A stretch of DNA of 64,000 bases from Obrimoposthia wandeli (taxonomy: Eukaryota), in contig CDROCS010000171.1 of NCBI GenBank assembly GCA_977020255.1, forward strand, positions 124,001-188,000, given 5' to 3'. A program made the position numbers and the translations under genes. Positions 1 through 64,000 of the stretch are shown here, one piece after another; position 1 is the first letter of the stretch; every line of letters starts with the position of its first letter. The notes below the pieces were generated by a model. It was not told the DNA's origin. It saw only the letters and a list, made by a program, of their open reading frames with translations, and did not search any database.

Positions 1-1299
1 CTCAATCGTTACTTCACTCGAATTGAGCAGACAGGATTTCGCCTTTCTAAGACGCCGTGTCTTCCGTACAGCAGCCTGCCTCGTTCGCTTCTGCGGGAAA
101 AGAGAAATTTTGGCCCATGTCTCCTCAGTTAATATTATTGGTTCCTGCAACAAAAAAACATTAATAAAATTTAAACATATAAATAATTTACCTCAATAAC
201 GGGCAGTTTAGCCTGTTTCACCAACTTGGCCTTCTTCCGATGGACCGTATTGGTTTTGACCCGATGACGTCGAGGTTTCTTAACTGCCGCTTGCTTCCTA
301 TCGACAGGTAGTCTCCGAGTTGCCTCCTCCCAAATTTCCTCCACCAATTCGGCTTCCTAAGTGGATAATTAAATAAATTTACTAATTTATAATAATATAC
401 CTCAATTTTAGCCGGAGTCTGTAGGTATCTCTGATCACTCCTGGGATCATCCTGGCTACATTGACTCGCCAAGTATTGCGGTTCAATTAGCCTCTCAATC
501 GTGGTCACTGACGGTACCAAATCCAGTTGCAGTTTCTGAAAATAAAATTAAAAAACATTTTAAATAAATGATTTCTAACCTCATTCGTCGCCTTTATTCT
601 CCTAACAGGACGTATCGGAGAATGTGGCCTTCTGAATGGATCAGGCCCTGTATTGTCGGGTATCGGAGTCGGAGTTGTAGAGGGAGTGAGACCATCCCAT
701 TCGTCGGTGAACAGATGCCACTCATCTTCATCCATTTCTGCAACCATGGAATCGTTGGCTCCTGGGGCTCCAATACTTGGCTGTATCCATTTCTCCTCCT
801 CCCCATCCGACGGAACGTCATCAGTAACCAACTCCTCGTCTGAGTCTGGTGCCAGTATTATCTCCGGTTGAGACAGCGGGATCAATTTCCAGGGGCATTT
901 GATTGCCGCCTCAAAATTGTCAAAGAGATTTGATCTCGTTGCTGCTACTGCTGAAGTTGCCGGACGATTGGCTTCTGTGTTAAGCCTGGGAGTACAGTCT
1001 TCCCAATTCTCTATCGAATCCTGACTAATCAGATCGATATATTGGGATCTCTGTACCCCACCTCGCACGCTCATTGGTTCTTCTCTTGGAGTTGAGCTGG
1101 CCAATGGCGGTTCTTCTCGCAACACTTCGGCTCTTGCTGCTGCTTCTCCTTCGTCTCCCTCACTCACCACTGACGAGTCTTGACTAAGTAAGTCAATGTA
1201 CTGCGCCGGTGGTGGCGTTCGCTGCTGTACTGGAGAGAGATCCCCATACAGCTGAACCTCCGTCTCTTCATCTAAATCGACGTTGTTGAAATTTGACAT
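1..1299 (-). CDS. Multi-exon Polinton gene A, copy 1 (acidic, SIM-like N-terminus; basic repeats), 3' end outside window
   Basis: ATG 1299. Predicted exons 1299-580, 535-401, 356-192, 144-<1, joined by phase-0 GT-AG introns (579-536, 400-357, 191-145). The spliced frame is open. Confidence 0.75.
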
Positions 1300-1348
1300 T
1301 CTTGATTAATGATATTTGATTTATGAAAAATAATGAAAAGAGGTTTCC

Positions 1349-1391
1349 TTATATACAAAAATAATAGACTAACCCTCTCTTGTCGTCCAAT
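1349..1391 (-). promoter_or_regulatory. TATA box plus CCAAT motif upstream of gene A
   Basis: TATATAA on minus at 1355-1349, about 50 bp upstream of the ATG. CCAAT at 1387-1391. Both are conserved in copy 2 (about 62277-62320). Confidence 0.5.
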
Positions 1392-1668
1392 GAGAGCGGG
1401 TTATTCAAATAATTTATTTGAAAATCAGTAAACTTTTCTCAATTTTTACCTATGTTTGAATGCTGGAATGTCATTGGATAAAACATATTTTCTTAAGATT
1501 TTGTTGCATAAGTTTAACATCCAATGAAAACGTATTATTCAAAGAATTTATGGTATTTTCTTAAATTTTGTTGATGTTTGAATACATGTATGTTTTTGGA
1601 TTTAAAATAGTAATATTTTTTTGGACTGTACATGTTTGGATGGTATAAAAAATTCATGAACTCATTTA

Positions 1669-1721
1669 AGGTCAAGTTAAGGTCATGACCTTATGATGTC
1701 ATCATCATGAGGTCAAGGTCA
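1669..1721. promoter_or_regulatory. Cluster of AGGTCA nuclear-receptor half-sites
   Basis: AGGTCA at 1669, 1680, 1710 and 1716; TGACCT at 1686. Contains the 16-bp palindrome TAAGGTCATGACCTTA (1678-1693) and TCAAGGTCA (1713-1721). Confidence 0.45.
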
Positions 1722-1810
1722 TTTAAAGTCATGATGACTAATTTGATGACTCACCAAATAAAAATGAAAATTATTTCGAATTTATGTACTTGATTATTTA
1801 AAATTTTTTG

Positions 1811-2015
1811 TGACCCTATATATGTATCTTTCTTATAAATTCTTATAAAGAAATTTTTTTTATGACCTTGTATATATGTATGGATATAAATTCTTATAAA
1901 GAAATTTTTTTTTATGACCTTGTATATATGTATGGATATAAATTCTTATAAAGAAATTTTTTTTTATGACCTTGTATATATGTATGGATATAAATTTTTA
2001 TAAGGAAAATTTTTT
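1811..2015. repeat. Subterminal 52-bp tandem repeat x4
   Basis: TGACC recurs at 1811, 1863, 1915 and 1967. Unit approx TGACCTTGTATATATGTATGGATATAAATTCTTATAAAGAAATTTTTTTTTA. Confidence 0.9.
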
Positions 2016-2036
2016 CGCGCCCAAAGGGCGCGAAAA
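2012..2036. promoter_or_regulatory. Perfect 11-bp hairpin made of two inverted E2F-consensus sites
   Basis: TTTTCGCGCCC-AAA-GGGCGCGAAAA. TTTCGCGC is the classical E2F consensus. Confidence 0.45.
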
Positions 2037-2216
2037 TTTTTTTTGCGAGCCTGTATTTATTACTCGTTGATCCACCGCGGGCCCGGAGGGCACGCTTCGG
2101 CCTCTCAGGACCTTAATCAAAATTTTGGGGGCATTATGAGATTTTTAAATTTAAAGGGTGTTATATGGATTTAATTATTTTTTGAGTTTTGGGAGGGGGG
2201 GGTAGAAAATTTTTCT

Positions 2217-2310
2217 ACACACCTACACGAAATTTCACTCCACACACATGCACGGTTTTAAAGGACAAGGGGGGAGGGGGTGTGGATTAGACCGGACACA
2301 TCCACCTACT
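2217..2310. repeat. Right terminal inverted repeat of Polinton copy 1
   Basis: Reverse complement matches 48133-48230. The terminal 35 nt are identical. Confidence 0.9.
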
Positions 2311-5019
2311 GCAATGAATTGCTTTGTATGCCACCGCACAATACCCAGAAATCCAAAAACTGCTAATGACTTCGTGTTAGCTAATTCATTTGAGACAATA
2401 CAAATCAGTGATCACAAAGCTGTATAAGAGCTATTGTATGATATTACAACTAGAAAATGCGACAAACTTTAATAAAGTTAAAATATTATGCATACAAAAA
2501 AGCTTCATCGTAAAGAATGTACTTTCTCTTCTTAAACACTTTATGAATTGTATTAAAAATTTATATTATAACAAATCAAAAGTCGCCAGGCAGTATACAA
2601 ATAATAAGTTTGAAAATGTTTTGTATGGATAGTTTTTGTAATTATTAAATTTTGTCACATTTTCTAGTTGTAAGACCATACTTTCTTCTAAAATGATTCA
2701 AAACCTGACGACAAATGATACTATAATGTACCCATATCATCATCAGATGCTCTAGCAAAGAAGAAATCTAAATAATCCCAGGAAATGATTCAATCCCAAA
2801 CGAAAATGTAATGTCTAATCAAAGTTTATTTCAGTGCTTGCTGTTCTATGACTTCTAGTCAGAGAAAGATTAACAATTTAGAATGATGTTTTTGTTGTTC
2901 AAAGTGGGGATCATATGACGAAAATTGATCTCGCTGTATAATCTGTGAGAACTAAGTGGATATTGTTTTCAAATAAACAGGTGTGCTAACTGTTGAAACT
3001 TATTTGTGTCAACTGTTTATTGAAAATCAAAGTTTAATATATTGTTATTTAACTTCTTTAATGTGCTTAATTATAAATATAAATGAAATAATAATAATAA
3101 TAATAACCATAACCATATCTGATTCACCCAGTCGAAATTCCCAACTTACCCTATTTAAGTACATGTCATCCTACAAATCTTTATAACCTTATCAGAAACA
3201 GTTAATGATATACGACACTAAAAAATATTCATAAAGCCATGTAAAGAAAATTATGACATTACAATCTAAATGGTAGATACAGTGATGTTTGATGTCCAAC
3301 CCGTCCCACTGTATATGTTGAAAAGCCAATTTTCTTGAACTATGGTGGATCTTTTTAATTTAAAATTATCATTTTTTATAGGTATTTCAAAGTATTTAGA
3401 TATTTTAGGTTCAACATACATTTTAAATGTATCTAGAAGAAAAAAAAAATTTGTGACGAATTCTCGTTTGTATTGGAAACCAATGTAATATTATTAAATA
3501 GGGGAAGAAATTTTCGATAAAGCAATTAACACTAAAAACCACAACATTAAAAGTCTCTGAAATTTTCAATTATCTTAACTTTAAAACTTGAATTTTGATC
3601 ATATCATCGAAAGTTCAATTTCACTATTTCAAAGCCCCGTATTTATAACTATTTTTCTTATTATAAACGCAAATAATCCTAATTAAATTAAATAATAATA
3701 CAAATAATTTGATTCCAGATATTCTATTTTATTTACATTAAAATAAATAAATATTTTGAAGTTTTTAAAGTTTTCAAAATCGAAACGTTAATATACTTTC
3801 TCCTTCTTAAAATTAAATTAATACTACCTGATTTTTCTCAAAGTACTAAGTAAACGATTCGGTGACTTATTTGATAGGGCGATAAGCTTAATCTTACACA
3901 ACGCAAGTCATGAAACTATAATTACATTTTGATTTATTTTAAAACATTATTAATTCATTGTAACTTTCTTAACAATTCCAAACAAATTTGAAAACTCATT
4001 TCAGTTAATGATTTTTTAAGACATAACATACTAAAATAGTATTTATTATAAATATTGTTAATCTTGTTAATTTGATGAATATTTTGGGTTTGTTCCAAAT
4101 TCTAAACCCAATAAAAATGGCAAAAAATAGGATCATATTTTGTTTGAAAGAAATTGTAATTAAGAATCAACTTTGATAACAGTGTGAAGTTTTTGTCAAT
4201 TTCTATTTGACTATATTTGTAGCAGCAATTGTAGAAGTGCTCTTAGAAACGCTAATAGAGATAGAGAGATAAATGGTAGTCGGCGGCGATGAACAGCAGG
4301 AAGAAAGCGTCCGTAACAAAAATCGACGGCTGCTGAGATAGACTGCGAGAAGAGCACATGGAGAGAAACCGAAGGAAAAGACAGGAATAGATATAGAGAC
4401 AAACAGGAGAAGATGGGATAGCTGATGCACGCATTTGAAACACGTTGAGTCACAGTCATCCAGGTGTTAGATTTAGTAATTGAGAAATTATTGAAAAATT
4501 AAATAATTTATACTAAAATAAAATCCTTGAAAGCAAGGTTGAAAATTAAATATTTAAAATTAAGTTAAAATATTAGAGGATAAAATCAGGGGTAAATATT
4601 AATAGGACCACGAAGGTCGTGTGTAGTGTGTCGTATATATAGGTTAAGATTATTAATACAAAAGTGCAAAAATAAGAATAAGAGTTAATTGGAAAAGGGA
4701 ACTAAGAAGAAAAAGGAAAACGTCAATCAGGAAAAATTCGCCAACGTAGGCATATTATTTTAATTAGATTTTAATTCCACTGACTTTCAAGAGCCAGGTG
4801 GAAATTGCCTCCACTCGACGACCGACTATATAAGTCGCCTCAACCAGTCAGAAGAAGAAGAAAAGTCATTGTCAGAAGAAGAAGAAAAGTCATTGTCGCA
4901 GTCATTGTCGCCGGAGACACACCAACAGCGGAAAAACTTGGGTGAGCGCTCCTAATTTGAGCCACATTAATTCGATCATTACAGAAATACAACAATCTCA
5001 TCAATCTGAAAATAGACAA

Positions 5020-8859: not shown

Positions 8860-9900
<1,041 letters not shown>

Positions 9901-43150: not shown

Positions 43151-43249
43151 ATTGATTGTGCTTATGTCAATAACAATTTCACAACTGAAGCTAAGACAGC
43201 AATCGATGACATTAATTTCTTGGAAAAAAACATTTAAACATGTATATTT

Positions 43250-48132: not shown

Positions 48133-48230
48133 AGTAGGTGGATGTGTCCGGTCTAATCCACACCCCCATCCCCCCCTACTGTCCTTTAAAACCGTGTAGG
48201 TGTGTGGAGTGAAATTTCGTGTATGTGTGT
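48133..48230. repeat. Left terminal inverted repeat of Polinton copy 2
   Basis: Reverse complement of 2217-2310. Confidence 0.9.
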
Positions 48231-48504
48231 CTCCATTCCATCCAAAGGGGGGAAGGAAGGGGTACCACCACCCCCACCATATTTGTTAAACTTTTACCAT
48301 GAATCTCAAAAGTGGTTAGAGAAGACCACGAGAATCCATATTGACCCCGACGGCTTTTCGCAGACGAGATTTCAAATATTACTACTAATTTTAAGAAAGA
48401 TTTTATATTAATAAATTACTACATGTTAAATATCTATGTCAGATCTATATAATTTAGAGAAGCAAAAACAAAATACGAGACAAAATTATTTTTCAAAATA
48501 TTTA

Positions 48505-48911
48505 TTAAACATAAAACAACATATTGGCTTCACTCAAAGTCCAGAGAGGCTGCATTTTCCCGTCATCAGCAAAATATTCATTCAGACGTATTGAGATATT
48601 CCATAGTTCTTCATCTAGAATTGGAGCAATCAAATATCCTAGATCATCTTTAAAATCCAGACTGGGATCAGTTTCAAGCTTGAAACAATTTCCTTCATAT
48701 ACATAATCAGGAATGAAAAATATCCCAAAATATTTTTCAGTTGATCAAAATCAGTTGTTGTTAAAATTTCGATGAGATATTTTTTCTCCACTTTTGATAT
48801 TTTCACAGGATTCATAACTCGTATAATTTGATGCCTCTTTAATATATTACATAGTTTTCCTTTTGAAATTCTTTCTGGATAATAAAAATTTGCTACACAT
48901 CTCTTATCCAT
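48505..48911 (-). pseudogene. Polinton OB-fold/SSB-like paralog 2 (1-nt frameshift near 48722)
   Basis: MDKRCVANF...LKRHQIIRVMNPVKI...DFDQLKNIL, then in a shifted frame FFIPDYVYEGNCF...DDLG...WNISIRLNEY...MQPLWTLSEA. Aligns with the 49045-49521 product. Confidence 0.6.
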
Positions 48912-49044
48912 TCTAAAATAAGGAAACTGATTAAAAACAATGTTTATAAAAAATACACATAAGATACAAATAAGATACAAATAAAACTGATTATTAAATG
49001 AAAGAAACATAGTAAAACCGATTACAATTTATTACACACAAAAG

Positions 49045-49521
49045 TTAAAACATAGAAATATGAGCACGTTCAATTTTCCACATAGGCAACTTTGTTCCCA
49101 TTTCATCTTTCTTGTAACCATAAAGTCGAATTGTTACAGTCCATTGGTTCTTTTTCGGAAACGCATCAATATCAACATATCTTCCATAGTCATCTAGAAA
49201 TGCTTCATCGGCTCCTCGGATATAAAATTCGTTCTTATTGAAAGTAAAATTCGGAACTGCCTTTTCTATTTTCTGTTTAAGATATTGAAAATCAGGTTTT
49301 TGAATACCTGATAGATAGTAGCTGAACTTTCTTCTTTCAATTGTCACAGGATTTACTAAAGCAATCAGCTGAGCCTTCTTCAAGAATCTGACTTTGTATT
49401 TGAAATATTGTTTCACTTCTTCATACATATCCTTATCCGATTCTTCAAACATTTCTTCGTCATCGCTTAATACCCGTTGGCTATCATCCATTGTTGATAA
49501 TTGTCTTTGATATGAATGCAT
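49045..49521 (-). CDS. Polinton hypothetical protein, OB-fold/SSB-like paralog 1
   Basis: Intact 158-aa ORF with upstream TATAAAA (49559-49553). C-terminal WTVTIRLYGY...PMWKIERAHI resembles the terminal OB-fold strands (inference). Confidence 0.65.
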   Translation of the reverse strand: MHSYQRQLSTMDDSQRVLSDDEEMFEESDKDMYEEVKQYFKYKVRFLKKAQLIALVNPVTIERRKFSYYLSGIQKPDFQYLKQKIEKAVPNFTFNKNEFYIRGADEAFLDDYGRYVDIDAFPKKNQWTVTIRLYGYKKDEMGTKLPMWKIERAHISMF

Positions 49522-49732
49522 TTACTGTGATTTGTCCTCCAATGGCGCATTCTTTTATACTAATTTCTAACAAAGACATTAATCTCATTGGTTAATATAA
49601 CTAAAGCATTGAATTTGATTGGACTAAATCTATATTAAAAATCAAAATTGATTGGAAGAAATATATCATCCAATTATAATAGGTTTGCAAGATAATTACA
49701 AGAAACGTGCAATAAAAAAGCAGGTTCAGACA

Positions 49733-49767
49733 TATATAAAGAAGATTTTACAGAATACAATTTCAGT
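49733..49767 (+). promoter_or_regulatory. TATA box + initiator for the TBP-like gene
   Basis: TATATAAA at 49733-49740 and TCAGT at 49763-49767, about 30 bp apart. Several CCAAT/ATTGG motifs lie in 49580-49680. Confidence 0.6.
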
Positions 49768-49770
49768 CTA

Positions 49771-50253
49771 ATGAAACTCGTAAATATAAATTATAAAGGT
49801 AGAACAGAAGATGATGTTTCGTACTTACCATTCAATGAATGGAAGCCGAGACAATATGTAGAAAAGTTTGACAATTTCACAGTTGTTATTTTTCCTACAG
49901 GTTAGTTTTTTATTTTATTTTTATATTGAATTCTTTAGGAAATTGTCGTGAGATGCAAAATACCAATGCTTGGGTTCAATTTACCATTTGGAATTCAAAT
50001 CACTGCAATACAATCAATCACGATTTCGGCTAATCTCGGGAAACAGATAAATCTTTTTAAAACAGCAGAGAAAATGAAAGAAGAATGCATGTTTGAACCA
50101 GAAAATTTTCCTGCTCCCAGTTATTTGAAGTTTAAACCGCTATGTGTAAATATATTTTCCAGTGGTAAAGTTATGATATTGGGATTGAAAAATTTTGATT
50201 ATCCAGACATAGTTGATTTGATTTTAGAAAATATATCTTATTACATCTTGTAA
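49771..50253 (+). pseudogene. TATA-binding-protein-like gene (two TBP repeats; 38-bp intron 49901-49938; frameshift near 49950)
   Basis: Repeat 1 MKLVNINYKG...TVVIFPTG|NCR. Repeat 2 FEPENFPAPSY...CVNIFSSGKVMILGLK matches the TBP YEPExFPGL...LIFxSGKVVLTGAK motif. Confidence 0.8.
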
Positions 50254-50296
50254 TCTTTTTTCTATAAACAAACCCCGTTTAAACTTATTGTTTCAA

Positions 50297-50569
50297 ATGA
50301 ATAATACTATAAATAGAGACAATGAAGTGGATCGGCTTGCCGATGAAATATTTTCTGGAAAAATCAGGGGTAAAGAAATTTTATCAGAATTAAAAAATAA
50401 TGATATAACAAGAGATAACATTGAAATATTGGTTAGATCACACGTTATTCGAGAATTTAGAAATCGTACACAAATAAATAAAATTATAGCCAAATATTCA
50501 TTAATTAATTTTTGTATTTCATCTACAATAGCTCTAACATTGTACATTTCAATAAGGAAACTTCTATGA
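50297..50569 (+). CDS. Small Polinton protein with C-terminal hydrophobic segment
   Basis: Open 90-aa ORF ending YSLINFCISSTIALTLYISIRKLL. Confidence 0.55.
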   Translation: MNNTINRDNEVDRLADEIFSGKIRGKEILSELKNNDITRDNIEILVRSHVIREFRNRTQINKIIAKYSLINFCISSTIALTLYISIRKLL

Positions 50570-50606
50570 TAATATAAACAATATTAAAAATGAAAGAGTA
50601 TATGCA

Positions 50607-51254
50607 ATGGAGCTAAATAATAATGCTGTATTTCAAATAGTTGGCCCAAGTGGAAGTGGAAAGACACATTTCGTCTGTAAATTGTTGCAAAATGAATCTC
50701 TTTTCAAATCTAGTTTCAAAAATATTTATTGGCATCATGGTGGAGGAGGGGAAAGCGGGTTAACCAAAACAGAAGTTTGCAAGTTGAAGGGTATAAAATT
50801 TATTGAAGGATTTGATGCAAATTGGTGTGAAAGATTGAAAAAAGAAGATGTAATAATAATTGATGATTTGTATGAGGAGGCTAACAAGGAATCGGACTTT
50901 AATAATTTATTTACAAAGATTGCAAGACATCGTGGAGTTACAGTTATATTTATCACTCAAAATCTGTTTCACCAAGGAGGTCACCATAGAACAAGAAATC
51001 TTAATGTACATTACTTAGTTTTATTTAAAAATCCTAGAGATCAAACAGTTGTTGATTTTGTGGCCAGACAGGCATTTCCTCAAAATAAGAACTTTCTAGT
51101 TGATTCATTCCACGATGCTGCTAAACAAGCACATGAGTATTTATTTATTGACTTTACACAAGCTTGCCCAGATGATTTACGTGTTTTAACAGACATATTT
51201 AATTCTAAGGGAGTAACTGTTTATAAACAAATAGAGAACAATTATAAAAAATAA
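50607..51254 (+). CDS. A32/FtsK-like DNA packaging ATPase
   Basis: Walker A GPSGSGKT, Walker B VIIIDD, and RHRGVTVIFITQNLF. Confidence 0.92.
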   Translation: MELNNNAVFQIVGPSGSGKTHFVCKLLQNESLFKSSFKNIYWHHGGGGESGLTKTEVCKLKGIKFIEGFDANWCERLKKEDVIIIDDLYEEANKESDFNNLFTKIARHRGVTVIFITQNLFHQGGHHRTRNLNVHYLVLFKNPRDQTVVDFVARQAFPQNKNFLVDSFHDAAKQAHEYLFIDFTQACPDDLRVLTDIFNSKGVTVYKQIENNYKK

Positions 51255-51261
51255 ATTCGCA

Positions 51262-51400
51262 ATGCCTTTTACAAAGTTGATAGTAAAACGTAAAGTAAAA
51301 TCTAAGAAATCAAAAAAAGAATCATTAAGAAAAAAGAAGTGAAAAAATTAATCAAATCTGTAGTTAAAAATAAAAAAAAACTTAAATGGCTTCGAATATA
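51262..51400 (+). pseudogene. Small Lys-rich basic protein (frameshift in A-run)
   Basis: MPFTKLIVKRKVKSKK, then in a shifted frame RIIKKKEVKKLIKSVVKNKKKLKWLRI*. Confidence 0.45.
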
Positions 51401-51432
51401 AACAATATTTAAATTGAACCTTTTTTATTAAA

Positions 51433-51762
51433 ATGAAGAAAATGCAAAGAAGCATACCCTATTTTAAAGCTTTAGTTAAAGCCTCTTCTAATAAGAGAAT
51501 GATTATTCTTAAAGCATTCCCATCCTTTGTTGTAGATGATTTATTGGAAGTTTTATATAATATAGTTTTGGGTCGAGTAAAAGTTGGAAATCGGAAAAAT
51601 ATATTAAAGAAATATAGAAAAACTCTTCTAGATATTGCTAATGTAAAAAGTAAAAAAAGGAAACGAAATATTATTCTTAAACAGAATGGTGGTTTCATAG
51701 GGGCTGTTATTCCAGTTGTTGCTTCAATTATCAGTAATATTATAGCTGCGACACGTTCATAA
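51433..51762 (+). CDS. Conserved Polinton virion protein with QNGG|F amphipathic C-terminus (adenovirus pVI/pX-like by inference)
   Basis: LLEVLYNIVLG...KQNGGFIGAVIPVVASII pattern typical of Polinton/adintovirus core genes. Confidence 0.7.
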   Translation: MKKMQRSIPYFKALVKASSNKRMIILKAFPSFVVDDLLEVLYNIVLGRVKVGNRKNILKKYRKTLLDIANVKSKKRKRNIILKQNGGFIGAVIPVVASIISNIIAATRS

Positions 51763-51790
51763 ACAATTATTTCTAAAATCAGCTAAAGAT

Positions 51791-52009
51791 ATGGGTGCTA
51801 GCCCTTCTTTACCTAAACTTAAATTTTCTTTCGATTCAAATTGTTGTAATGGAGAAGATATAATTCAATCCAAAAGATCCAATTGGCTACACAGGAGTTT
51901 CAAAATTAGCAAAAAGAACAAAACAAAATTACAAGAAAACGCAGAAATGGCTGAGCGATCAGTTAGCCTACAGTCTGAACAAGCCGATGAGAAGAAGGTT
52001 TCCAACTAG
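51791..52009 (+). CDS. Putative N-myristoylated small protein overlapping the integrase 5' end
   Basis: MGASPS fits MGxxxS. Open 72 aa in a different frame from the integrase. Confidence 0.45.
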   Translation: MGASPSLPKLKFSFDSNCCNGEDIIQSKRSNWLHRSFKISKKNKTKLQENAEMAERSVSLQSEQADEKKVSN

Positions 52010-52875
52010 AGCTTACAAAACCAGCGGTCCTAATAATTTATGGCAAATGGATTTGATGGAGATGATCCCATATTCTTCCATTAATAAGGGATATCGATAT
52101 ATTTTAACATGTATTGATGTATTTAGCAGGTTTGCTCGAGCAATTCCAGTTAAAGCAAAGTCTTCAATAGCTATGCTTGAAGCCATTAAAGAAATATTAA
52201 AAGAGGACATTCCACAAAATGTGCAAACTGATTTAGGAAAAGAATTTTATAATAAGCAAGTTCAATCATTATTTAAACAAAATAATATAAATCATTACTC
52301 TGTGTTTTCACAATATAAAGCAGTAGTAGAAAGATTTAATCGTACTCTAAGAGATCGAATAAAAAAGTATTTCACAAAAGAAGGAAATAAAAAATGGATC
52401 CAAGTTTTACCTAAAATAATACATGCATATAATCACTCTGAACATAGAGGTCTCAAGGGAATGAGACCTGTTGATGTTACTAATAAAAACTCTATGGACA
52501 TTTGGATGAACAGGAATAAAAAAGATAAAATTAAAAAAGCTAAATATAAGAAAAACGAATATGTTCGAATTTCGAAAATTAGCTCTACTCCATTTATTAA
52601 AAACTTTGATCAGAATTGGAGCGATGAAATATTTTGTATAAGTAAAATTGATCAAAAGAGTAATCCAATAATGTATACTATTAAAGATGCTGACAATAAT
52701 ATCGTTCACGGTAAATTTTACGAGCAAGAACTACAAGTAATATCAAATAAACCTAGCGTTTTCCGTATTCAAAAAATATTAAAATCTAAGGGTACAGGTA
52801 AACATAAACAATACTTTGTTAAATGGCATGGTTATTCAGACCCAACTTGGATATCAGCATCTAATATAATATTAA
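51849..52875 (+). pseudogene. int: rve integrase with C-terminal chromodomain (premature TAA at 51861-51863)
   Basis: MEKI*FNPKDPIGY...WLSDQLAYSL; catalytic WQMDL, QTDLGKEF and VERFNRTL; chromodomain KQYFVKWHGYS. Confidence 0.92.
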
Positions 52876-52879
52876 TTAT

Positions 52880-53928
52880 ATGTATATGGTTTTACCAAGT
52901 AACGGATGTCCGAAGACTCAACCAGATAATGACGCTAGTAGCTTTATTATCGATTGGGAAAATTCTATAAATCTCCAAGGAGAATGGGAAGCGGCTTTAA
53001 CAGAATTTTCTTTTTATTATTCTCCAATTACTATCAAAAAATCTCACATATTTCGTTTACAAAAGAAGTTGATCATGAAAAAACAACTGAAGTTGTGATC
53101 GGGTTTGATAGTAAAGGACAATTATATTACAATTGTATAGATAAAGAAGTGAAAGTAATATTTGAAAATAACAAAGTCAGATTTAAAAATCGATTAAAAT
53201 TTCTTCAAGTTATTAAAATTAATTTTGAATCTAAAAAAGAAGCTCTTCAATTCAGTTTTGATAGTGAATAAACAGTAGCTCGTAATAAACGGGATATTAT
53301 CTCATCTAATTCGGTTAGAAATGTTCCTGGTAGAGTAGCAAAAGTGTTGTTACTTGAAACGAGACCAAAGACTGTAGTGGAACTGAAAACGTTTTCAAAA
53401 GATTATAAAATAGATAGTGAAGTGAATTTCTGTAAATTAATACAGAAGGAATGTAGTGAATATTTGGATAAATGTGAAACATTAAATGGTAAATTAATGT
53501 TTACAGTAAAGAGCAATATAAAACGAGTTTCATTTGATGATAAACTCGCTAAAAACCTTGGTTTAAACAGAAATAGCTTTGAAACCTATACAATAAAAAC
53601 CATAAAAGCTAAAAATAAGGCAAAACTTTTAAATGCTGTTAATCATTTATATATTTATACTAATTTAATAGAACCAACGCTTGTAGGAGGACAGCGAGTT
53701 CCACTTTTGAGAACAATATGGATATCTAAAAATGAAACTAGAGATGGGGACACTGTCGGTATGTGTATAGATCAACCAATGTATCTTCCAGTTTCTCTCT
53801 TTTCTATAAACAATATTGAAGTAAATATTAGAGATGATTCCGGACAACTAATAGATTTCACGTACGGGGCCAAGACAAGTTTAACAATACATTTAAGAAA
53901 ACAAAATGGCGAATCCAGCAATAATTGA
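52880..53928 (+). pseudogene. Penton / minor capsid protein (frameshift about 53050, stop at 53269-53271)
   Basis: N-terminal LPSN...SF...LQGEWEAALTE and C-terminal YIYTNLIEP..VG...PLLR...IEVNIRDDSG motifs. Confidence 0.85.
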
Positions 53929-54283
53929 AGCTTATAGTCAAAGCCAACAAGGTGGAGAATTACCATATTTTGTTGGTAAACAATACGGATCTGGCTGGCT
54001 TAGAACATTAGGTAGATTTGCCTTTCCTCTTTTAAAGAGACTCGGGCGATTTATATCAAAATTAGGAAAGGATTACCTTTCATCAAAAGACAACAAACTA
54101 ATACCAACTTTTAAGAAGCATGCGCTTGATGAACTTGATAATGTTTTACCTGAAGTTGCTAATTTGATTAGAAAACGTAAATCAAATAAAAGCCAAGGAG
54201 GTAGTGGATTTAAAAGTAAAAAGAAGCTAAAAATTAATATAAACAAACGTAAGAAAGTTGAAGGAACAATATTTGCAAAATGA
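53906..54283 (+). CDS. pVII-like basic core protein
   Basis: QQGGELPYFVGKQYGSGWLRTLGRFAFPLLK with QxGxG motifs and a basic C-terminus. Confidence 0.75.
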   Translation: MANPAIIEAYSQSQQGGELPYFVGKQYGSGWLRTLGRFAFPLLKRLGRFISKLGKDYLSSKDNKLIPTFKKHALDELDNVLPEVANLIRKRKSNKSQGGSGFKSKKKLKININKRKKVEGTIFAK

Positions 54284-54465
54284 GTTGCGCCAAAACTGAA
54301 TTATGTATTTTTGATAAACCGCCTCCACAAGTAGTTGTAGATAATGCTTCCTTTGACGAAATATTCCTAGTTAACTCAGTTTCAGGAACCACTTTAACCG
54401 ATTTAGAATTTAATATTAATGGTTCCAAGAGCGAGTATTTAGATTTGAATGATACTTTGCTTTAT
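54280..54465 (+). pseudogene. Hexon / major capsid protein, 5' stub only
   Basis: CAKTELCIFDKPPPQ...LEFNINGSKSEYLDLNDTLLY is the Polinton MCP N-terminus. It then runs into antisense PolB sequence. Confidence 0.85.
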
Positions 54466-54475
54466 GATCATCATA

Positions 54476-57400
54476 CGAAACCTGTCCCTCGCTTTCATCC
54501 TTAAATTTCCCGATAATGTCCTTTAAACTCATAGAGTGTAGAGGATGGTTAACGGGATATTTATGGGTATCTAGTAAGTTGTCCCTAAACATTGCTGGTA
54601 ATAATTTATTATTTAAACTAACATTCCTACATTCTAAAAAGAAAGAGTCAGTGTCCCCAGCTGCGATTTTAATCTCACAATTAAATTCTTGTCGGTATTT
54701 CTCCAATTCTATGTATTGAAGCTCATACATTCTGAGTTTAGAAATGTCTAAAACCGTTTGACCTATATAACTCGGTCGATTGAGACAAATACTCTGTTTT
54801 ACTAATAACACTGCTACCAAGTCATCTGCAATTGTAAAACTACGCTTGAAGTTGTACTTGCTAGTATATGTTATTAGTTTACGCTTATCATTGCAAAACC
54901 GTAGACAAATACGTTTCCGCAAGTCCTCTACAGTTTTTCCAAAGAGACTATTACTTTTTAACTTGTAAAAATCTCGATCGAATTTGCTAGTGGCCAAATT
55001 ACGTTTTCTTGAATTCTTCTCAATATAGTCTTTAAACACAAAGTTTTGACTGAAGCTTATAGCACGATGAATTCGAGTAACTTTCGCTCCCAACTTTAAG
55101 TAGAATTGAAGAAGCCGCCAATGCACAACATAATTCAACTTGTCTTCATGGGTTAACAATAATTTCTTAACCTTTGAATTAGGTGGGCATTGATGAACAG
55201 GCGCTACTGGAAGATCATCTAATTTATCATGCACATTGGGAGGGATTTTTATGTCCACCTCAACCAAATAGCCGACGTCGGATGAAACTGTATCAACAGT
55301 AGCCAAATCTGTCATCAACTTATTCAACTGATCCACATCATAAACCCACTTAAAGTTGGCATGAGGTAGAGGTTGAGTAAGCGCCCACCCATACAAATTA
55401 TTAATATCGATGTACAGAATCTCCGTGGATTGATTTTTGACAACATGATGTTTGTTGACAAAAGTCATTCCACCGCGTATACCATAATCATACATTTGAT
55501 ACATCGCGGGATCTTGCAGTAACTCGATATTAATTTTAAGAGTTTTTATTGCTGTTGCCCATAAAAGACCAGGTAAACTAAAGAAATGCATGGGATCTAG
55601 CCCATCTTCTGCTAAAGACTTTACACGAAAGGACTCAAAAACATCAGCTAAAAGATAAATGTCTAACTTCATATAATAAAGCATATATTCTAAAAGATTT
55701 CGACAATTATTCACCCAAAATGTACGGGCCTCATTATAGTCTTGAAGACTTACACCCTCAAATTCAGTTATGGGTGGGATTTCACTTGTATTTTCTAAAT
55801 CTGCGAAAGTTTTCGCAAATTTATACGGAAAAATCCCCTTATCGTTAACCGAAGCTGGGAACACTGACTGTGTGATTGGCCATGCATTTAAAGATGCCGT
55901 TAAATTTTTTAAAGACCCGCTCAAAAACTGCAGAGAATCTATGAATCTTAAACTGCAGAATTATATGCAGTTAAAGATAAATATTTCTCCGAAGTTTGAG
56001 GTATACATGAAATTTCCCAAGAGCTTAATGTACCCAACGCGTATTTAAGTATATGATGCAAATCATATCCTTTGAGATTATGAAACACGATGGGAATGCG
56101 TGGTTTTTTAGGGAGACGACGGCCAAGGTTACAAAGGTTGCACGCCGCTCCCAAGTATCGCCCCGTAACATGATCGTGATCTCTGACTAACTTAGACTGG
56201 GTTCCACACAAATAACATAATCTACAAGAATTAAAATTAACCCAGTCTATGCCTGTCATGATCATTGCTTGATGAGCATTAAGATCATACCACGGTTTGA
56301 CAATTGTTGTTCCTAATTCCTCTAATTTTAACATCAAATCTAAAATACAATTTGGACCGGAAAATTTATGATACTGGATAATATTGGGGCCTAAGAATAG
56401 TAGTCTTGCCGAAGCCGGTAGGTGAATACTCTCATACTGGTCGTGCAATGCTAAAATTGACTCAAAATCTGCATACACCCTGAATTCCACGGGTATGCAT
56501 TTTGCCCAATCCCTGAATTTTAAATCCTTATCCTTAGGCATGCTATATAGCGTATTGTCATCAGGATTCAGTGAACATAATGTCAGATATTTGCTGTAAG
56601 AGAGCTCGGATCGGAACCCATGCAAACATCTATGACACCACTTACACATTATCCTAACTGGTAAGGATCCATTATCTAAATTTAGAAGACGATCTAAACT
56701 GGGAATTGCAGCATAATGGAATTTATTATTCTGTTCGAGCAAAATTAAGTTGACCTAAGTCCCCTCATTTTAGCTCCTATAAATTACATCTACAAAAGGA
56801 TTTTTAAAAATTTCTTCATCTGTTACATTAACTGGGATATCAGTATTATATTTGAATACATTAATACTCAAGTTATTAAGATGTTCAAATCTTGATATCG
56901 CAGTTAATTTAACAGGAAAATCTATTCCATGATACTGCAATTCATTTAAAAAAGGGGTATATTTACTGACACGCTCTCTATGCTCAGTAATTACATCCTT
57001 TTGAGGATGGCCAACACGCTATACAGAAAGCAAAGGTTATCACTGTTTTGTATGTTAACAATGGAACGTGAAAGTTGAAGAGATCTAGGTGAAGGAATGT
57101 ATGAACTCCCCGAAAGATATATCATGTCAGTGAACTTTGTTAGAACAAAGCTAACATCGTGAATTCTAACTAGAGTCCATCCACTACTTAACTCGCTATA
57201 ATTAGCAATTTTTTCATCCAGTTTTTTTCCAATTTCAGTTACAAAATTATCATAAAAAACAGTTGCTTTATGTGAAATTACCCAAGTTTTAGTTTCCTCA
57301 TTGACATTTTTAAACTGCACTGTTGCGCAAAATTGAACCTTAGCCTGTCCTAATTTAGTCACTTCTGATTTTAAAAGATTTTCAATATTTGAATCTACAC

Positions 57401-58666
57401 CTACGTTTAATAAAATTTCATTTCCTAATGGCACCTTAACTATAACATATTTATTATTTAGGTGATACTCTATAGTAGCACCATTTTCTCTACGTTTTTT
57501 GGGTGGGACCTTATTAAGAAATTGGCCTCGCCTCTTTCTTCCGTTTGTCGCTGACAAACCTCCCCCTAATTGAACGGTAAGACAACTATTTATATTAATA
57601 GTTGAGACAATCGCAGCTGAGGTTGAAGGTGCTGCTATTGGTGATGCTGCCGATGTTGAGACAATTGCAGTTGATGTGGAAGCTGCTGCTATTGTTGATG
57701 CTGCCGATGTTGAGGCAACTGTAGATGATGTTGAAGGGACCGCTGACCTTTCCGATGAAGAAACGGCTGTTGTAGAAGTTAGTGCTGCTGAAATAAATAT
57801 ATTAAAAAAATAAATATATTTTTAAAAATTATTACCTCTAAGACGTGCTAACATCGATGTAGGCACTCGCGATGGTGGAGGCATATCTGTTGTAGCAGAT
57901 GACGATTGTAGAACTGTATTTCCTGAATAAAAAATAAAAATAAAATATATATAATAAAAAATAAAATATATAATTTAAAAATAATAATAAAAAATACCTA
58001 ATGAAGGCAATCCAAGTTGAGCTGGAATGAAGTCCTCTTCATTGATGGAATCCATCCAGCTGTCGTCCGACATCTCGACGAATTCTGATTCCTCGATGGT
58101 CTCCAACCAGGTGTTGTCGCTCCACTGCTCCATCTCGAAATCTATCTGGGTGATATTTCGCATCCAGTCATTGTTTGAGAATTGGGTTGCTGGTGCCAAT
58201 TCCTCAAAATCTTCTTCGGATATGTCGTTCATCCACTCATTGTTAGACATTTGAGTGGATGTGGCAGCAGCAGAATCAGGAGCCGCGAGAGAAGGACCAA
58301 TGGCAGGACCATAAACTGGTAGACTGACTGCCACTGGAATTGGAGGTGGAGCTCGAGCGGCCTGCGAATCGCGCACCAATTGGACGATATCCCTCTTCTT
58401 GTTGTTGGCCGTGAAACACGATAGGTGAGCTCGATGTTCACAGAAGAATTCTCGAAACTCCTTCTCCTCCATTGTTCTGCAGAAGGGGCAGACGAAGAAC
58501 AGAACACCTTGAGACTTGGTCCGGTAGTATGCAGACATTGTCTCCATGCAGGACTCTCCTCCATGCGGAGCCGAAGCACCGCAATACGCAGGGAATAGGT
58601 TACACGTAATCTGAAATAATAAATATTAATAAGAAAATAATAAAAATAAATTCTTACCATAGGCAT
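54476..58666 (-). pseudogene. polB: Protein-primed DNA polymerase B with spliced N-terminal RING-like/acidic-repeat extension; C-terminus deleted
   Basis: Predicted exons 58666-58658, 58610-57998, 57922-57836 and 57787-about 54476, all phases compatible. PolB motifs DHDH, IVFHNLKGYD, YIDINNLYG, KSNSLFGK and GDTDS. Frameshifts about 57000 and about 55950, stops about 56760-56780. Confidence 0.88.
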
Positions 58667-58920
58667 TATTTCAAATTGTCGGGGATTTAAATGAAGAAAG
58701 TGTTTGCTTATATACTAAAATTTATGCACACATGCTCTTTTCCTATTGGATTAAAAAATTGAATTTATTCCTCCACTGAGAAGGATTGTTTATCTGTTAT
58801 TGGATGAATTTGGATTATTTATATATTAAAGGTTGAAAAATCTTTATTCCTCCAATCAAAAGGCTTATTTGTAAATAAATGTAAATTTTAATAATGAATT
58901 CCTCCAATTAGAAGAATTGT

Positions 58921-59409
58921 TTATCTACATGTCAAGTAATAATAAGAAAGACTTAAACATTTTTTATATGCGCAATGGTCACCATGATTACGACATGGAC
59001 AGCAAATATTTTGTGGAATATTTAATAGATGATCACGTGAAATATTTAAAGTATTCAACCTCAATTTAGGAAAATATTTTTTTAAAGTCTTATATTTTTT
59101 ACCATCCATGTCATCTAAAACATAAAAAATTCCATTTTCAATTTCAAAATTAGATTTAATAGTATCGAAAATACATATTTCACAAAAAGCCTTATGTCCT
59201 TCTTTCCATTTTAATAAATGGAAATATTTAGTTAGATATAAATTAGTAAATTTTTTCTTATAATCTAAACTTTTAAATGGGATATCTATATGAAATATGA
59301 AATGCAAAGGATGAAAAACGTCGCATAGATCCATAATACATAATTATTTTATAATATAATCCTCATTTTTGTTAATGAAAGCCTCAAAATCTATGATATA
59401 TTCCTGCAT
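58921..59409 (-). pseudogene. Conserved Polinton protein, DEDD-exonuclease-like N-terminal motif and Cys/His C-terminus
   Basis: The 137-aa ORF extends upstream through a frameshift and stop to MQEYIIDFEAF (ATG 59409). C-terminal CCPCRNHGDHC. Confidence 0.55.
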
Positions 59410-59532
59410 AATTACCCAAATCTGTAGAAAATCCCGTTGTTTATAACGAAAAACTATTAATCAAAAATTTATTAAAATGACGAGGTAGTATTTAGACAAT
59501 TTATAACATAATCAATAAAGACAAAATAATAA

Positions 59533-59863
59533 TCTATAAAATTAATGTTTTTGTGGAAGGACCCTCTTCCGGTTTAATCTGGAGGATTCGCTTTCTTGCT
59601 GCTCGCCGAACATCCTCCGTCTCTTCTCTTCTTTTTTCCTCCACTTTCCTTTTTTACATTTCGATTTTCTTGTTCCACTCCAAAACCCGACGTCGTTCTG
59701 CTAGCCGCCTGTCCTGAATATCCACCCGACGATTCCACTCGGTCGCGACAGCAGTATATAAATTCTGGTTGAGGATCCTCTTTCGTAAATCTCCTTTCTT
59801 CTCATTTATTCTTATATTTGACTCGATCTTCGTCACCAAACTTTGCATTTTAATAAATTCCAT
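59533..59863 (-). pseudogene. Basic coiled-coil protein (premature TAA at 59654-59656)
   Basis: The frame continues past the stop as KRKVEEKRREETEDVRRAARKRILQIKPEE.... TATA-like run at about 59898-59907. Confidence 0.5.
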
Positions 59864-60113
59864 TTTTTAATTATGAAGATGTTAATAAATTTGAACCTAT
59901 ATATATAAATTAAAGATATTTTTAATCCAATCACAAGCAATTAAAATATATTTATCAAATGGAAGTTTAATAAATATATAACTAATCATTGCATTTATAT
60001 TTAATCCTAAAAAATTAATTATTCCTTAACAATCCAATCACATTCGAATAAGGTAACTTTATTTTAATAAACTTACGGAGGATATTTTAATATTACTAAA
60101 TTCTAAAAAAAAA

Positions 60114-62219
60114 CTAATGTTTATGAATTATATTCTTGAAAATCCTTACGAAGTCTTCATTGGGATCATCGGGGTCGTATTCTCTCCGACTAAGTATTAT
60201 AGGAGAAAGCGGTACTGGTTCCTTCTTCTTTGGCCGGCCCGGTTTCTTTTTCGGCTTCACCGGTTGCTGTACAGCAATTGTCCTTCCCTCAGGTTTTGGC
60301 AATAGTTGCCGCAATGTTTTGGGAGGAGGTGCAGCCGATGTTGATGGCCCCGACATAGAAGCAGTAGGCTTCCTCTTCCGCGGAGCTTTCTTCTGTTTCT
60401 CCTCCTTCTCACGCTGAAGCTGGCGTGAGACGGCATCCTGTTGCCCACGCGAATCTGGAACCATTGCGGGTGTATCCAGTTCCGCTAGGAATTCGTCCAA
60501 ACCAGCGTCATCCCAGGCCCTCTTCAAGTTCTGGCTGGTTGTTGGACGAGGAGAAGCAGTATCCTGCAGGCGTTGTTGACTCGAGTGCGGACTTATCTCG
60601 ATCGGCGAGACTGGGATCCTCTCATATAAGATAGGCCCGTCGTCCATTGGAGGAGGGAGAATCTCCTGCTGGCCAATCACCGCCTCAGAATAATGGCCAA
60701 TTGAGGTTTGAATTTTTCTCGCGCGCCTCGTCTTCTTCACCTCTGCCCGCTTTGTCCTTTTCTTAGGGAAAGGAGTAACTTCTCCTCAAGTCTCCTCAAT
60801 TATCCGGACAGGTTCCTGCAAATGAAAACAAAAATAAAATTTCAAATAAAATTTTATTTAAATAAAAAAAAAATTTAAAAAGAATTACCTCAATAATCTT
60901 AGACGGAAGGTTTTCCTGCCGCTCACTCGTTACTTCACTCGAATTGAGCAGACAGGATTTCGCCTTTCTAAGACGCCGTGTCTTCCGTACAGTAAGCTGC
61001 CTCGTTCGCTTATGCGGGAAAGGAGAACTTTTGGCCCATGTCTCCTCAGTTAATATTATTGGTTCCTGCAACAAAAAACATTAATAAAATTTAAACATAT
61101 AAATAATTTACCTCGATGACTGGCAGATTAGCCTGTTTCACCAACTTGGCCTTCTTCCGATGGACTGTATTGGTTTTGATTCGATGACGTCGAGCTTTCT
61201 TAACTGCCGCTTGCTTCCTATCGACAGGTAGTCTCCGAGATGCCTCCTCCCAAATTTCCTCCACCAATTCAGCTTCCTAAGTGAATAATTAAATAAATTT
61301 ACTAATTTATAATAATATACCTCAATTTTAGCCGGAGTCGGTAGGTATCTCTGATCACTCCTGGGATCATACTGGCTACATTGACTCGCCAAGTATTGCG
61401 GTTCAATTAGCCTCTCAATCGTGGTCACTGACGGTACCATATCCAATTGCAGTTTCTGAAAATAAAATTAAAAAACATTTTAAATAAATGATTTCTAACC
61501 TCATTCGTCGCCTTTATTCTCCTAACAGGACGTATCGGAGATTGTGGCCTTCTGAATGGATCAGGCACTGTATTGTTGGGTATCGGAGTCGGCGTTGTAG
61601 AGGGAGTGAGACCATCCCATTTGTCAGTGAACAGATCCCACTCATCTTCATCCATTTCTGCAACCATGGACTCGTTGGCTCCAGGGGCTCCGATACTTGG
61701 CTGTATCCACTCCTCCTCCCCATCCGACGGAACGTCATCAGTAAACAGCTCCTCGTCTGAGTCTGGTGCCAGTATTATCTCCGGTTGAGACAGCGGGATC
61801 AATTTCCAGGGGCATTTGATTGCCGCCTTGAAATTGTCGAAGAGATTGGATCTCCTTGCTGCTACTGCTGAAGTTGCTGGACGATCGGCTTCTGTGTTCA
61901 GCCTGGGAGTACAGTCTTCCCAATTATCTATCGAATCCTGACTAGTCAGATCGATATATTGGGATCTCTGTACCCCACCTCGCACGCTCATTGGTTGTTC
62001 TCTTGGAGTTGAGCTGGCCAATGGCGGTTCTTCTTCTAGCAACAGTTGGGCTCTTGCTGCTGCTTCTCCTTCGTCTCCTTCACTCACCACCGACGAGTCT
62101 TGACTAAGTAAGTCAATGTACTGCGCCGGTGGTGGCGTTCGCTGCTGTACTGGAGAGAGATCTCCATACAGCTGAACCTCCGTCTCTTCATCCAAATCGA
62201 CGTTATTGAAATTTGACAT
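60114..62219 (-). pseudogene. Multi-exon Polinton gene A, copy 2 (SIM-like motifs, basic repeats, AT-hook)
   Basis: Exons 62219-61500, 61455-61321, 61276-61112, 61065-60889 and 60815-60114; phase-0 GT-AG introns of 44, 44, 46 and 73 bp. One TGA at about 60786 lies where the paralogous exon 4 has TGG. Confidence 0.75.
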
Positions 62220-63050
62220 TCTTGCTTCTTGATTAATGATATTTGATTTATGAAAAAATAATGAAAAGAGGTTTCCTTATATACAAAAATAATAGACTAA
62301 CCCCTCTTTTGTCGTCCAATGAGAGCGGGTTAATCAAATAATTTATTTGAAAATCAGTAGGCTTTTCTCAATTTTTTAACTATGTTTGAATGCTGGAATG
62401 TCATTGGATAAAACATATTTTATTCGAAAATATAACTATTTTCTTAAGATTTTCTTAAGATTTTCTTGTATAAGTTTAACGTCCAATGAAAACGTATTAT
62501 TCAAAGAATTTATGTTATTTTCTTAAATTTTGTTAATATTTGAATACATGTATGTCTTTGGATTTAAAATAGTGTTGGGGTTTCTATACGAAACTTGGTA
62601 TAGAGCCTCTTATGTGCGGAGGGCCCCAACGTGAGTTCGATTAGAAGCAGGTCTTAAAGTTGGTCGTGGCCTACTTAGTGTTATGGTTGCCTAATCTCTT
62701 GTACTATCTGAAGGTATTTGATTTGATGTCTCTTATTCTGAAGGGTGTAAAAACAACTTGTTCTAATGTAGGAAATTGTTTATTCAAAATTCACGTAACT
62801 AAACACCACAATACGTTTATGTACGTATCTTCTAAAAAGTACAGTAAAAATTCCTAAGACTTCTGTAAGTCTCTACCACAAGTGGGGATGAACCACGTAT
62901 CGATTTTATGCTAAGGGTGATCGAGTCTTTAGAGTCGTTCCTCTAACTCGCGAATAAGCTCAAGTTAAGATTTTCAAATTAATGTGGCTCTTATGTCAAA
63001 TTTCAATTTAACTTTATTGGTAAACTTTTATCTTTATACCAAAACTATGG

Positions 63051-63198
63051 CAATTTAGACAAAACTTCTCTTCAAACTTTTATGTCAATTTAGACAAAAC
63101 TCCTCTTCAAACTTTTGTGTCAACTTAGACAAAAACTCCTCTTCAAACTTTTATGCAATTTAGACAAAAACTTCTCTTCAAACTTTTATGCAATTTAG
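63051..63198. repeat. 35-bp tandem repeat x4
   Basis: CAA(T/C)TTAGAC at 63051, 63086, 63121 and 63156, with a partial unit at 63191. Confidence 0.9.
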
Positions 63199-63231
63199 GA
63201 CAAATTAGACAAATTGTAATGTCAACTTTAT

Positions 63232-63570
63232 GACAATTTTAAGATAAGGGAAAAACTTCTTTTATTTACTTCAGGACAATCTTAAGACAAATTATACAAA
63301 TCGTAACTTTACGACAATTTTATGATAAGGGAAAAACTTCTTTTATTTCCTTCGGGACAATCTTAAGACAAATTATACAAATCGTAACTTTACGACAATT
63401 TTATGATAGGGAAAAACTTCTTTTATTTCCTTCGGGACAATCTTAAGACAAATTATACAAATCGTAACTTTACGACAATTTTAGGATAAGGGAAAAACTT
63501 CTTTTATTTCCTTCGGGACAATCTTAAGACAAATTATACAAATCGTAACTTTACGACAATCTTAGGATAA
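63232..63570. repeat. 81-bp tandem repeat x4
   Basis: GACAAT starts at 63232, 63313, 63394, 63474 and 63555. Confidence 0.9.
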
Positions 63571-63653
63571 TTTTAGTAATCTCTCTTACGTTTTTTGATG
63601 TGTCTCGAGATTGAGGTATCCCGAAGCGCTCCGGAATATACTGCGATCGAACA

Positions 63654-64000
63654 GAGTTGTAGAATATTGGTAGTCGACGATATTTCTTTTAATAATAACT
63701 TTGAGTTGTAGAATACTTGTAGTCGGCGATATTTCTTTTAATAATAACTTTGAGTTGTAGAATATTTGTAGTCGGCGATATTTCTTTTAATAATAACTTT
63801 GAGTTGTAGAATATTTGTAGTCGGCGATATTTCTTTTAATAATAACTTTGAGTTGTAGAATATTTGTAGTCGACGATATTTCTTTTAATGATAACTTTGA
63901 GTTGTAGAATATTTGTAGTCGGCGATATTTCTTTTAATAATAACTTTGAGTTGTAGAATATTTGTAGTCGACGATATTTCTTTTAATGATAACTTTGAAT
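63654..64000. repeat. 49-bp tandem repeat, at least 7 copies
   Basis: Unit GAGTTGTAGAATATTTGTAGTCGGCGATATTTCTTTTAATAATAACTTT at a 49-bp period. Confidence 0.95.

Follow-up and report, generated by a model that had tools for sequence, protein, structure and literature searches.

Predicted short spliceosomal introns in the polymerase gene and two further genes of a decayed Polinton/Maverick copy

The DNA analyzed here is a 64,000-nt stretch (the window) of contig CDROCS010000171.1 from the Obrimoposthia wandeli assembly GCA_977020255.1 (positions 124,001 to 188,000, forward strand). A Polinton/Maverick copy occupies window positions 48133-62572 and carries the marker genes of such elements, namely an rve integrase, an A32-like ATPase, a pX-like gene and a family B DNA polymerase (PolB), together with a gene for a short TBP-like protein and a gene for a low-complexity protein, here called gene A (Table 1). 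A left terminal inverted repeat (TIR) is present, matched by the right end of a second copy, while the main copy's own right end has been lost; with one element end per copy inside the window, there is no pair from which a 6-bp target-site duplication could be read. PolB is broken and lacks its 3' end, and most of the presumed major capsid gene has been deleted. Judged from its genes and ends, the element is a Polinton/Maverick copy of adintovirus-like type that has decayed, with its right end truncated and an internal part deleted. Its flanks are mostly 23-35% GC, and the host would be an AT-rich eukaryote, probably an animal.

PolB, the TBP-like gene and gene A are interrupted by eight predicted introns, one in the TBP-like gene, three in the PolB leader and four in gene A, all of which had been proposed in the initial annotation and were found here. 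All eight are GT-AG, 38-75 nt long and 85-96% AT, have a T-rich 3' end and keep the frame upon removal, as U2-type introns do, whereas the exons of gene A and exons 2-3 of the PolB leader have a GC content of ~46-52%. A TTAAT-like word, a possible branch-point motif, lies near the 3' end of five introns, a word that is frequent by chance at such AT content. When phases were walked from the start codon, all exons in the PolB leader and in gene A landed in the one frame that is open. In a block-shuffle control that held each AT dip in place (5000 shuffles per intron), donor and acceptor sites at the two edges, at a spacing that keeps the frame, occurred at a frequency of 0.07-0.13 per intron (product over the eight, 7e-9), although this test was designed around introns that had already been selected. 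Both splice sites were present on the antisense strand at only one of the eight places. A fixed scan rule, tuned after the introns were known, recovered seven of the eight, each on the sense strand, with 10 matches in 41 kb of flank. Taken on splice sites, frames and homology across the junctions, the eight are very probably real spliceosomal introns.

The PolB leader comprises a zinc-finger-like domain and acidic repeats that are separated by introns from the conserved polymerase. Exon 2 matches the N-termini of intact PolBs (P0003 at E 1e-9; 9 of 121 proteins at E<=0.01), and the leader shares eight invariant columns with four related loci (L014, L015, L028 and L029), whose DNA encodes the same finger leader without introns. 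Because intronless relatives hold finger and polymerase in one open reading frame (ORF), the leader must join the polymerase; of the 47 closest proteins, five (P0003, P0021, P0022, P0035 and P0039) have the complete finger in the same ORF as the polymerase, and a rough motif rule detected half of it in 14 of the others and nothing in 28. The polymerase core is 57.5% identical to that of intact P0003, which matches DNA_pol_B_2 (PF03175) at 7e-28, and it is through P0003 that the gene is assigned to the protein-primed family B polymerases, as the window core alone gave no Pfam match. Frame changes near 57000 and 55960 and stops near 56760 interrupt it. Pfam found no N-terminal OTU domain, a feature considered for the Alpha and Beta PolB classes of adintoviruses (PMC8502044), in intact P0003. 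The expectation that ORF-based annotation would overlook the introns was borne out for the PolB start, which ORF callers missed. The adenovirus E2B unit likewise has a small exon upstream that provides the initial three residues, a point on which our literature search found nothing.

The leader segment at 58010-58260 (minus strand) encodes three or four acidic repeats with the pattern W-M/L-x-x-I-x-E, which we take to resemble activation-domain motifs. A structural model of the leader, built from five sequences, reached a predicted local distance difference test (pLDDT) score of 71 and gave no Foldseek match at E<=0.001, a best VIA Z of 3.4 and Atlas matches below 0.9. A RING reading of the finger was considered and not supported.

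Exon 1 of the TBP-like gene aligns with residues 1-43 of intronless relatives in 16 of the 44 top-ranking cases. Once the intron is removed, the junction codes for G-N-C-R, in agreement with the G[KNSQT]CR conserved in 20 of the 44. The junction itself is in frame; a separate frameshift lies a few codons past it in this copy. The initial annotation had called the spliced genes host-like, a description that does not suit this one: the predicted protein of ~147 codons has a shortened first repeat and a single PF00352 match, instead of the full two-repeat core (~180 aa) close to eukaryotic TBP that marks the cellular protein, and among solved structures archaeal TBPs match it best (E 5e-13), well ahead of a human-length chain of 339 aa (E 1e-5). 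Its closest relatives are unnamed proteins of 135-175 aa, and in L031, a more distant, complete-looking relative with two long penton-like ORFs (1130-2686 and 9017-10525), an intronless TBP-like gene sits beside and downstream of PolB. By these comparisons the TBP-like protein is of a short viral type and not host-like.

Gene A can be compared between the two copies in the window. Over 386 codons, these differ at 22 synonymous and 29 non-synonymous positions (ratio of non-synonymous to synonymous change, pN/pS, 0.39; Fisher p 0.001), which places gene A under purifying selection in its predicted spliced frame. Both exon indels measure 3 nt, and the sole 1-nt indel of the gene body falls in intron 3. 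Exon 5 has one premature stop (60788-60786), compared to 8 and 10 in the other frames. Intron 3 plus exon 4 and intron 4 plus exon 5 score 105 in similarity, against 37-62 for the other five pairs, which identifies them as duplicates. No homologue of gene A was found among 2131 candidates (longer proteins only) or 92 loci, and there was no usable Atlas match; the protein presumably carries SUMO-interaction-like and AT-hook-like motifs. A possible fifth intron had been proposed near 60152-60104. A candidate does exist there, at slightly different positions and followed by a sixth (Table 1), and neither has comparative support.

The gene A introns present in both copies (61499-61066 versus 579-145) differ by one substitution in 134 bases, fewer than upstream DNA (p 0.03). 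They are more conserved than synonymous sites (8.3%) or upstream DNA (3.9%), an excess for which selection, AT-biased mutation and conversion are possible causes.

Table 1 Features of the element and its surroundings, in window coordinates; all introns are predictions.
Feature	Position	Strand	Remarks
PolB exon 1, coding part	58658..58666	-	3 codons; preceded by a TATA box at 48 nt; in relatives, M stands 2-5 residues ahead of first Cys
PolB intron 1	58611..58657	-	47 nt, phase 0; GTAAGA..TTTCAG, 89% AT; gives exon 2 its start codon
PolB exon 2	57998..58610	-	Cys/His zinc-finger-like domain and acidic Trp repeats; matches N-termini of intact PolBs
PolB intron 2	57923..57997	-	75 nt, phase 1; 96% AT; in-frame stop when retained
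PolB exon 3	57836..57922	-	87 nt; read in its only stop-free frame
PolB intron 3	57788..57835	-	48 nt, phase 1; 94% AT; in-frame stop when retained
PolB last exon	54473..57787	-	Ser/Thr-rich linker, then conserved polymerase with endonuclease VII insert (Endonuclease_7 3e-5); 41-58% identity to intact P0003 in three frame segments
TBP-like exon 1	49771..49900	+	43 codons; matches N-terminus of 16/44 best TBP-like relatives at E<=0.01
TBP-like intron	49901..49938	+	38 nt, phase 1; GT-AG, 87% AT; stop when retained
TBP-like exon 2	49939..50253	+	Pfam TBP E 4.5e-11
Gene A	60150..62219	-	exons 62219-61500, 61455-61321, 61276-61112, 61065-60889, 60815-60150
Gene A introns 1-4	61499-61456 (44 nt), 61320-61277 (44), 61111-61066 (46), 60888-60816 (73)	-	phase 0, each after GAG
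Gene A candidate introns 5 and 6	60007..60149	-	60149-60103 (47 nt) and 60076-60007; GT-AG, AT-rich; unverified; no second copy or homologue spans them
Virion/integration module	50228..54471	+	without introns; single-block matches to L031 ORFs; first gene an unknown ORF
A32-like ATPase	50556-51254	+	Pox_A32 (PF04665) E 2.5e-6, above cut-off
pX-like gene	51418-51762	+	Adeno_PX E 0.02
rve integrase with chromodomain	about 51828-52868	+	has a stop close to its start; rve (PF00665) E 4.4e-13, Chromo 2.8e-5
Penton-like gene, broken	about 52880-53928	+	matches L031 ORF
Small basic ORF	53897-54283	+	in virion/integration module
Presumed major capsid gene	last in module	+	first ~62 of ~430 codons remain
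Eight ATAAACAA boxes	50264..54246	+	five of them ~32-41 nt ahead of a start codon; putative late promoter
Left TIR	48133..48230	+	begins AGTAG; 89-95% complementary to 2217-2312, the right end of the second copy
Second element copy	1..2312	-	gene A exons 1-4 (all open) with same three introns, upstream region, right terminal repeat; 95% identity over 1.5 kb
LTR-like repeat	62572..62947	.	removes the element's right end; 88.7% inverted match to 6478-6852; 'LTR' (long terminal repeat) inferred from TG start

The integration and virion genes had been described as unspliced, and this stands for the ATPase and integrase, each of which aligns as one block to an intronless relative, and for the virion-module genes that survive; for the capsid gene it stands only in part, given how few of its codons are left. 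Pieces of the presumed capsid genes align to two ORFs of L031 (429 and 518 aa), neither of which has a Pfam match, and the 429-aa (major-capsid) ORF has no match in the PDB; the major capsid and penton-like labels are our own, taken from motifs. An ORF of L031 that we presume to be an adenain-like protease matches nothing in the window; in L031 it follows the capsid gene, where the window copy is deleted. The proposed division between spliced regulatory genes and unspliced virion genes holds for the virion genes surviving here, but low-complexity linker sequence predicts the introns better than does the property of not encoding virion parts: gene A and the PolB leader make up 23% of the coding DNA and hold seven of the eight introns (p 2e-4), compared to p 0.03 for the absence of introns from the virion module, with both p values overstated because duplicated introns are not independent. 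The pX-like virion gene of L018 (1930-1880) and L019 (1919-1869), both on the minus strand, has a 51-nt candidate intron near its end that also blurs the division; its removal enters the longest open frame, and its retention gives a plausible end as well.

Upstream sequences also differ between the two sets of genes. The ATAAACAA motif, picked by eye, occurs eight times in the virion module against 0.72 expected (0 of 500 shuffles) and does not occur in the proximal promoters of the three intron-bearing genes; in L018 it lies at 2221-2228, 33 nt before the pX-like gene. This suggests that the box marks a separate late class of virion-module genes. PolB, gene A and the TBP-like gene instead have TATA boxes 36-64 nt upstream and two to five CCAAT words within 260 nt, which makes transcription by host RNA polymerase II (Pol II) and spliceosomal removal of the introns likely.

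The history of the introns was traced in 13 related loci at 44-56% identity, six of which cover the PolB leader. Four of these six (L014, L015, L028 and L029) are intronless, and L013 and L017 have four introns each at other sites than the window. In L017 (80-469), four introns of 46-50 nt surround three exons of exactly 66 nt, all in frame, and two of the exons are visibly duplicated. With its four introns (40-45 nt) removed, L013 reads without a stop up to the end of the contig; two of them (718-760 and 1133-1176) lie inside conserved PolB, one within the SGSSYI motif. With three introns in a core polymerase gene here and two in conserved PolB there, the label 'regulatory' for the spliced genes cannot be kept. 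In a tree of 78 cores, the window PolB belongs to a 35-row clade with a Shimodaira-Hasegawa-like approximate likelihood-ratio test (SH-aLRT) support of 99, and intronless L028 falls between L013 and L017. Forms with and without introns are intermixed and the intron positions mostly differ, so that neither the survey of related elements nor the tree supports the intron-rich lineage and long nuclear co-evolution proposed initially; the pattern points to scattered gains with duplication and not to a single ancient lineage rich in introns. Among 17 introns examined, 12 of 136 pairs were alike at p<=0.02, eight of the 12 within a single gene, and no cross-gene family of near-identical introns at unrelated sites (introner type) was found among the 17, a comparison that did not include a genome-wide search. 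Viral-contig scans that used the single PolB, the terminal motif or a TBP-like relative as query yielded no locus.

Taken together, these observations are probably best explained by an element family whose short, host-spliced introns were gained repeatedly inside the clade. Several points weigh against this. The six leader-covering loci are short contigs, several of which share name prefixes and may not be independent. The tree was a quick one scored by SH-aLRT only, with L029 and other short loci omitted and no named reference polymerases. Selection on gene A is weaker in exons 2-4 alone (7 synonymous versus 13 non-synonymous codons), and the main copy is broken and need not be expressed today. 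The many other breaks in the copy and the scan matches in the flanks would fit AT-rich blocks that are never spliced, i.e., insertions or spacers in a dead element with GT-AG ends by chance. This is extremely unlikely given that the frame is kept at all eight sites, that the sense strand is favored, that motifs continue over the junctions, that the introns are conserved between the two copies and that L013 and L017 present parallel cases.

An old intron-rich ancestor followed by patchy loss in the intronless relatives, which would imply long co-evolution, gains some weight from two comparisons made on proteins only. P0010 has a 15-residue, AT-codon, intron-like read-through in frame after LIEKG, at the site and apparent phase of the fourth intron of L013, and the two are not sisters; and eight TBP-like proteins begin just past the TBP junction of the window, with MGC starts such as that of P0126, from a 7.4-kb contig. 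Both hint at some older shared intron positions that were then lost, and the intron style is uniform across elements. However, no counterpart in L013 or L017 could be assigned to any of the three PolB introns of the window (the linker cannot be aligned), the window has neither of the conserved-region introns of L013, the leader is intronless in four of the six close loci, and local duplication accounts for several introns, all of which makes a single old origin unlikely. Capture from the host is a further option, with gene A and the TBP-like gene arriving as intron-bearing cargo, as in nematode Mavericks, and the PolB leader exons recruited from it. According to Widen et al. (10.1101/2022.07.12.499685), intron-bearing cargo genes lie in a GC-rich, poorly conserved region of 2-5 kb beside the TIR, and gene A is likewise GC-rich, beside the TIR and devoid of a detected homologue. 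As an account of all three genes capture is nevertheless very unlikely: the finger in the leader is a native feature of this PolB clade, the TBP-like family is intronless next to PolB in L031 and far from eukaryotic TBP, and L013 has introns in conserved PolB. Gene A by itself may have a host-cargo origin.

Under repeated gain within the clade, PolB, gene A and the TBP-like gene would be transcribed by host Pol II from ordinary TATA/CCAAT promoters, and the host spliceosome would remove short AT-rich introns lying between GC-richer exons. Such introns would have arisen mostly in low-complexity linkers, multiplied via tandem duplication of exon-plus-intron units and become obligatory once present, because retention breaks the frame; the intronless virion module of this copy would form a probable separate late class marked by ATAAACAA. 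A bolder extension, which we regard as rather doubtful, is a two-tier programme in a clade of animal Polintons. Early genes (PolB, the TBP-like factor and a regulator) would need host Pol II and the spliceosome and have a rapid turnover of short introns that extends to the core polymerase, and the spliced TBP-like protein would activate the intronless virion genes, hypothetically by acting at the ATAAACAA box, so that host splicing would gate the move from transposon to virus.

The element shares a TIR, protein-primed PolB, rve integrase, A32-like ATPase, pX-like gene and presumed capsid genes with Polinton/Maverick elements (Polintoviricetes, including the proposed adintoviruses of animals, PMC8502044, where TBP is among the gene labels of one figure legend). 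It differs in its zinc-finger-like PolB leader, the absence of a detected OTU domain, its short TBP-like gene and its split PolB, as the core genes described elsewhere are intronless: intact vertebrate Mavericks are reported without introns, citing Kapitonov and Jurka (PMC8097293), and in nematode Mavericks the core genes have none and the cargo beside the TIR does (10.1101/2022.07.12.499685). That cargo (wosp/wasp proteases and KRMA kinases) resembles gene A in being GC-rich, poorly conserved, intron-bearing and beside the TIR, but introns there sit in captured host genes and here also in element-native PolB and TBP-like genes. Dinoflagellate Maverick/Polinton-like elements likewise have spliceosomal introns (PMC11957031); those introners are copies of intron-generating transposon families, whereas here the likeness is mostly between neighbors in one gene. 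As a functional analogy only, the adenovirus E2B unit, of a related nuclear virus, expresses polymerase and pTP from spliced mRNAs (PMC11304566), but adenoviruses have no integrase and splice long introns out of transcription units that several genes share, also in their late genes, in contrast to the 38-75-nt introns within single genes here. Other insertions on record are an HNH insert in nematode and oomycete pPolB2 (PMC10748475) and group I introns in Polinton-like viruses (PMC12220804). We found no paper on spliceosomal introns in an animal Polinton core polymerase in a search that did not extend to subscription journals or to Repbase and supplements, the last two of which may already mention multi-exon Polinton genes. 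The available portions of PMC11071308, PMC6431247, PMC5718144 and 10.1101/2024.03.25.586562 had nothing on core-gene introns, and a term search of 10.1101/2023.10.06.561300 and 10.1101/2025.02.07.637071 did not return the word 'intron'. Surveys define intact Mavericks by intronless ORFs (PMC8097293), and therefore an element with a split core would be counted as broken or lose its N-terminus in the annotation.

With introns in PolB, replication would be linked to the host spliceosome and transcription would take place in the nucleus. The differing intron content of close relatives offers a compact system for the origin and spread of short introns via exon-intron duplication, a long-standing open question, and the TBP-like gene with the late ATAAACAA box provides a testable early/late switch.

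Further small broken ORFs of the element lie on the minus strand at 59574-59866, 58921-59480 and 48505-49521 and have no Pfam match; one of them, we presume from its motif, resembles an exonuclease-type accessory gene. At ~48915 (minus strand), a T-rich tract ending in TTTTAG immediately precedes a start codon, as it does in L028 at ~270-320, and may represent an intron of the 5' untranslated region (GC-AG in L028) or a trans-splice acceptor. Tandem arrays (33-nt, 78-81-nt and 35-, 81- and 49-nt units) at 4917-6400 and 63026-64000 adjoin both copies of the LTR-like repeat. No host gene was found in the window when 30 of 166 flank ORFs of >=50 aa and 10 others were compared with Pfam, which returned only retroelement pieces (zf-CCHC, integrase SH3-like) and weak matches. 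A gag/integrase remnant with a zf-CCHC match, which we take to be Gypsy-like, lies at 16639-17760 (minus strand), and fragments at 9066-9224, 26942-27250 and 30776-30940 (minus strand) are presumably hAT-, Tc1- and mariner-like. Finally, a GC-richer, protein-like stretch at 42640-43271 (plus strand), without a Pfam match and followed by a possible GT-AG segment of ~30 nt, could be a host exon remnant.

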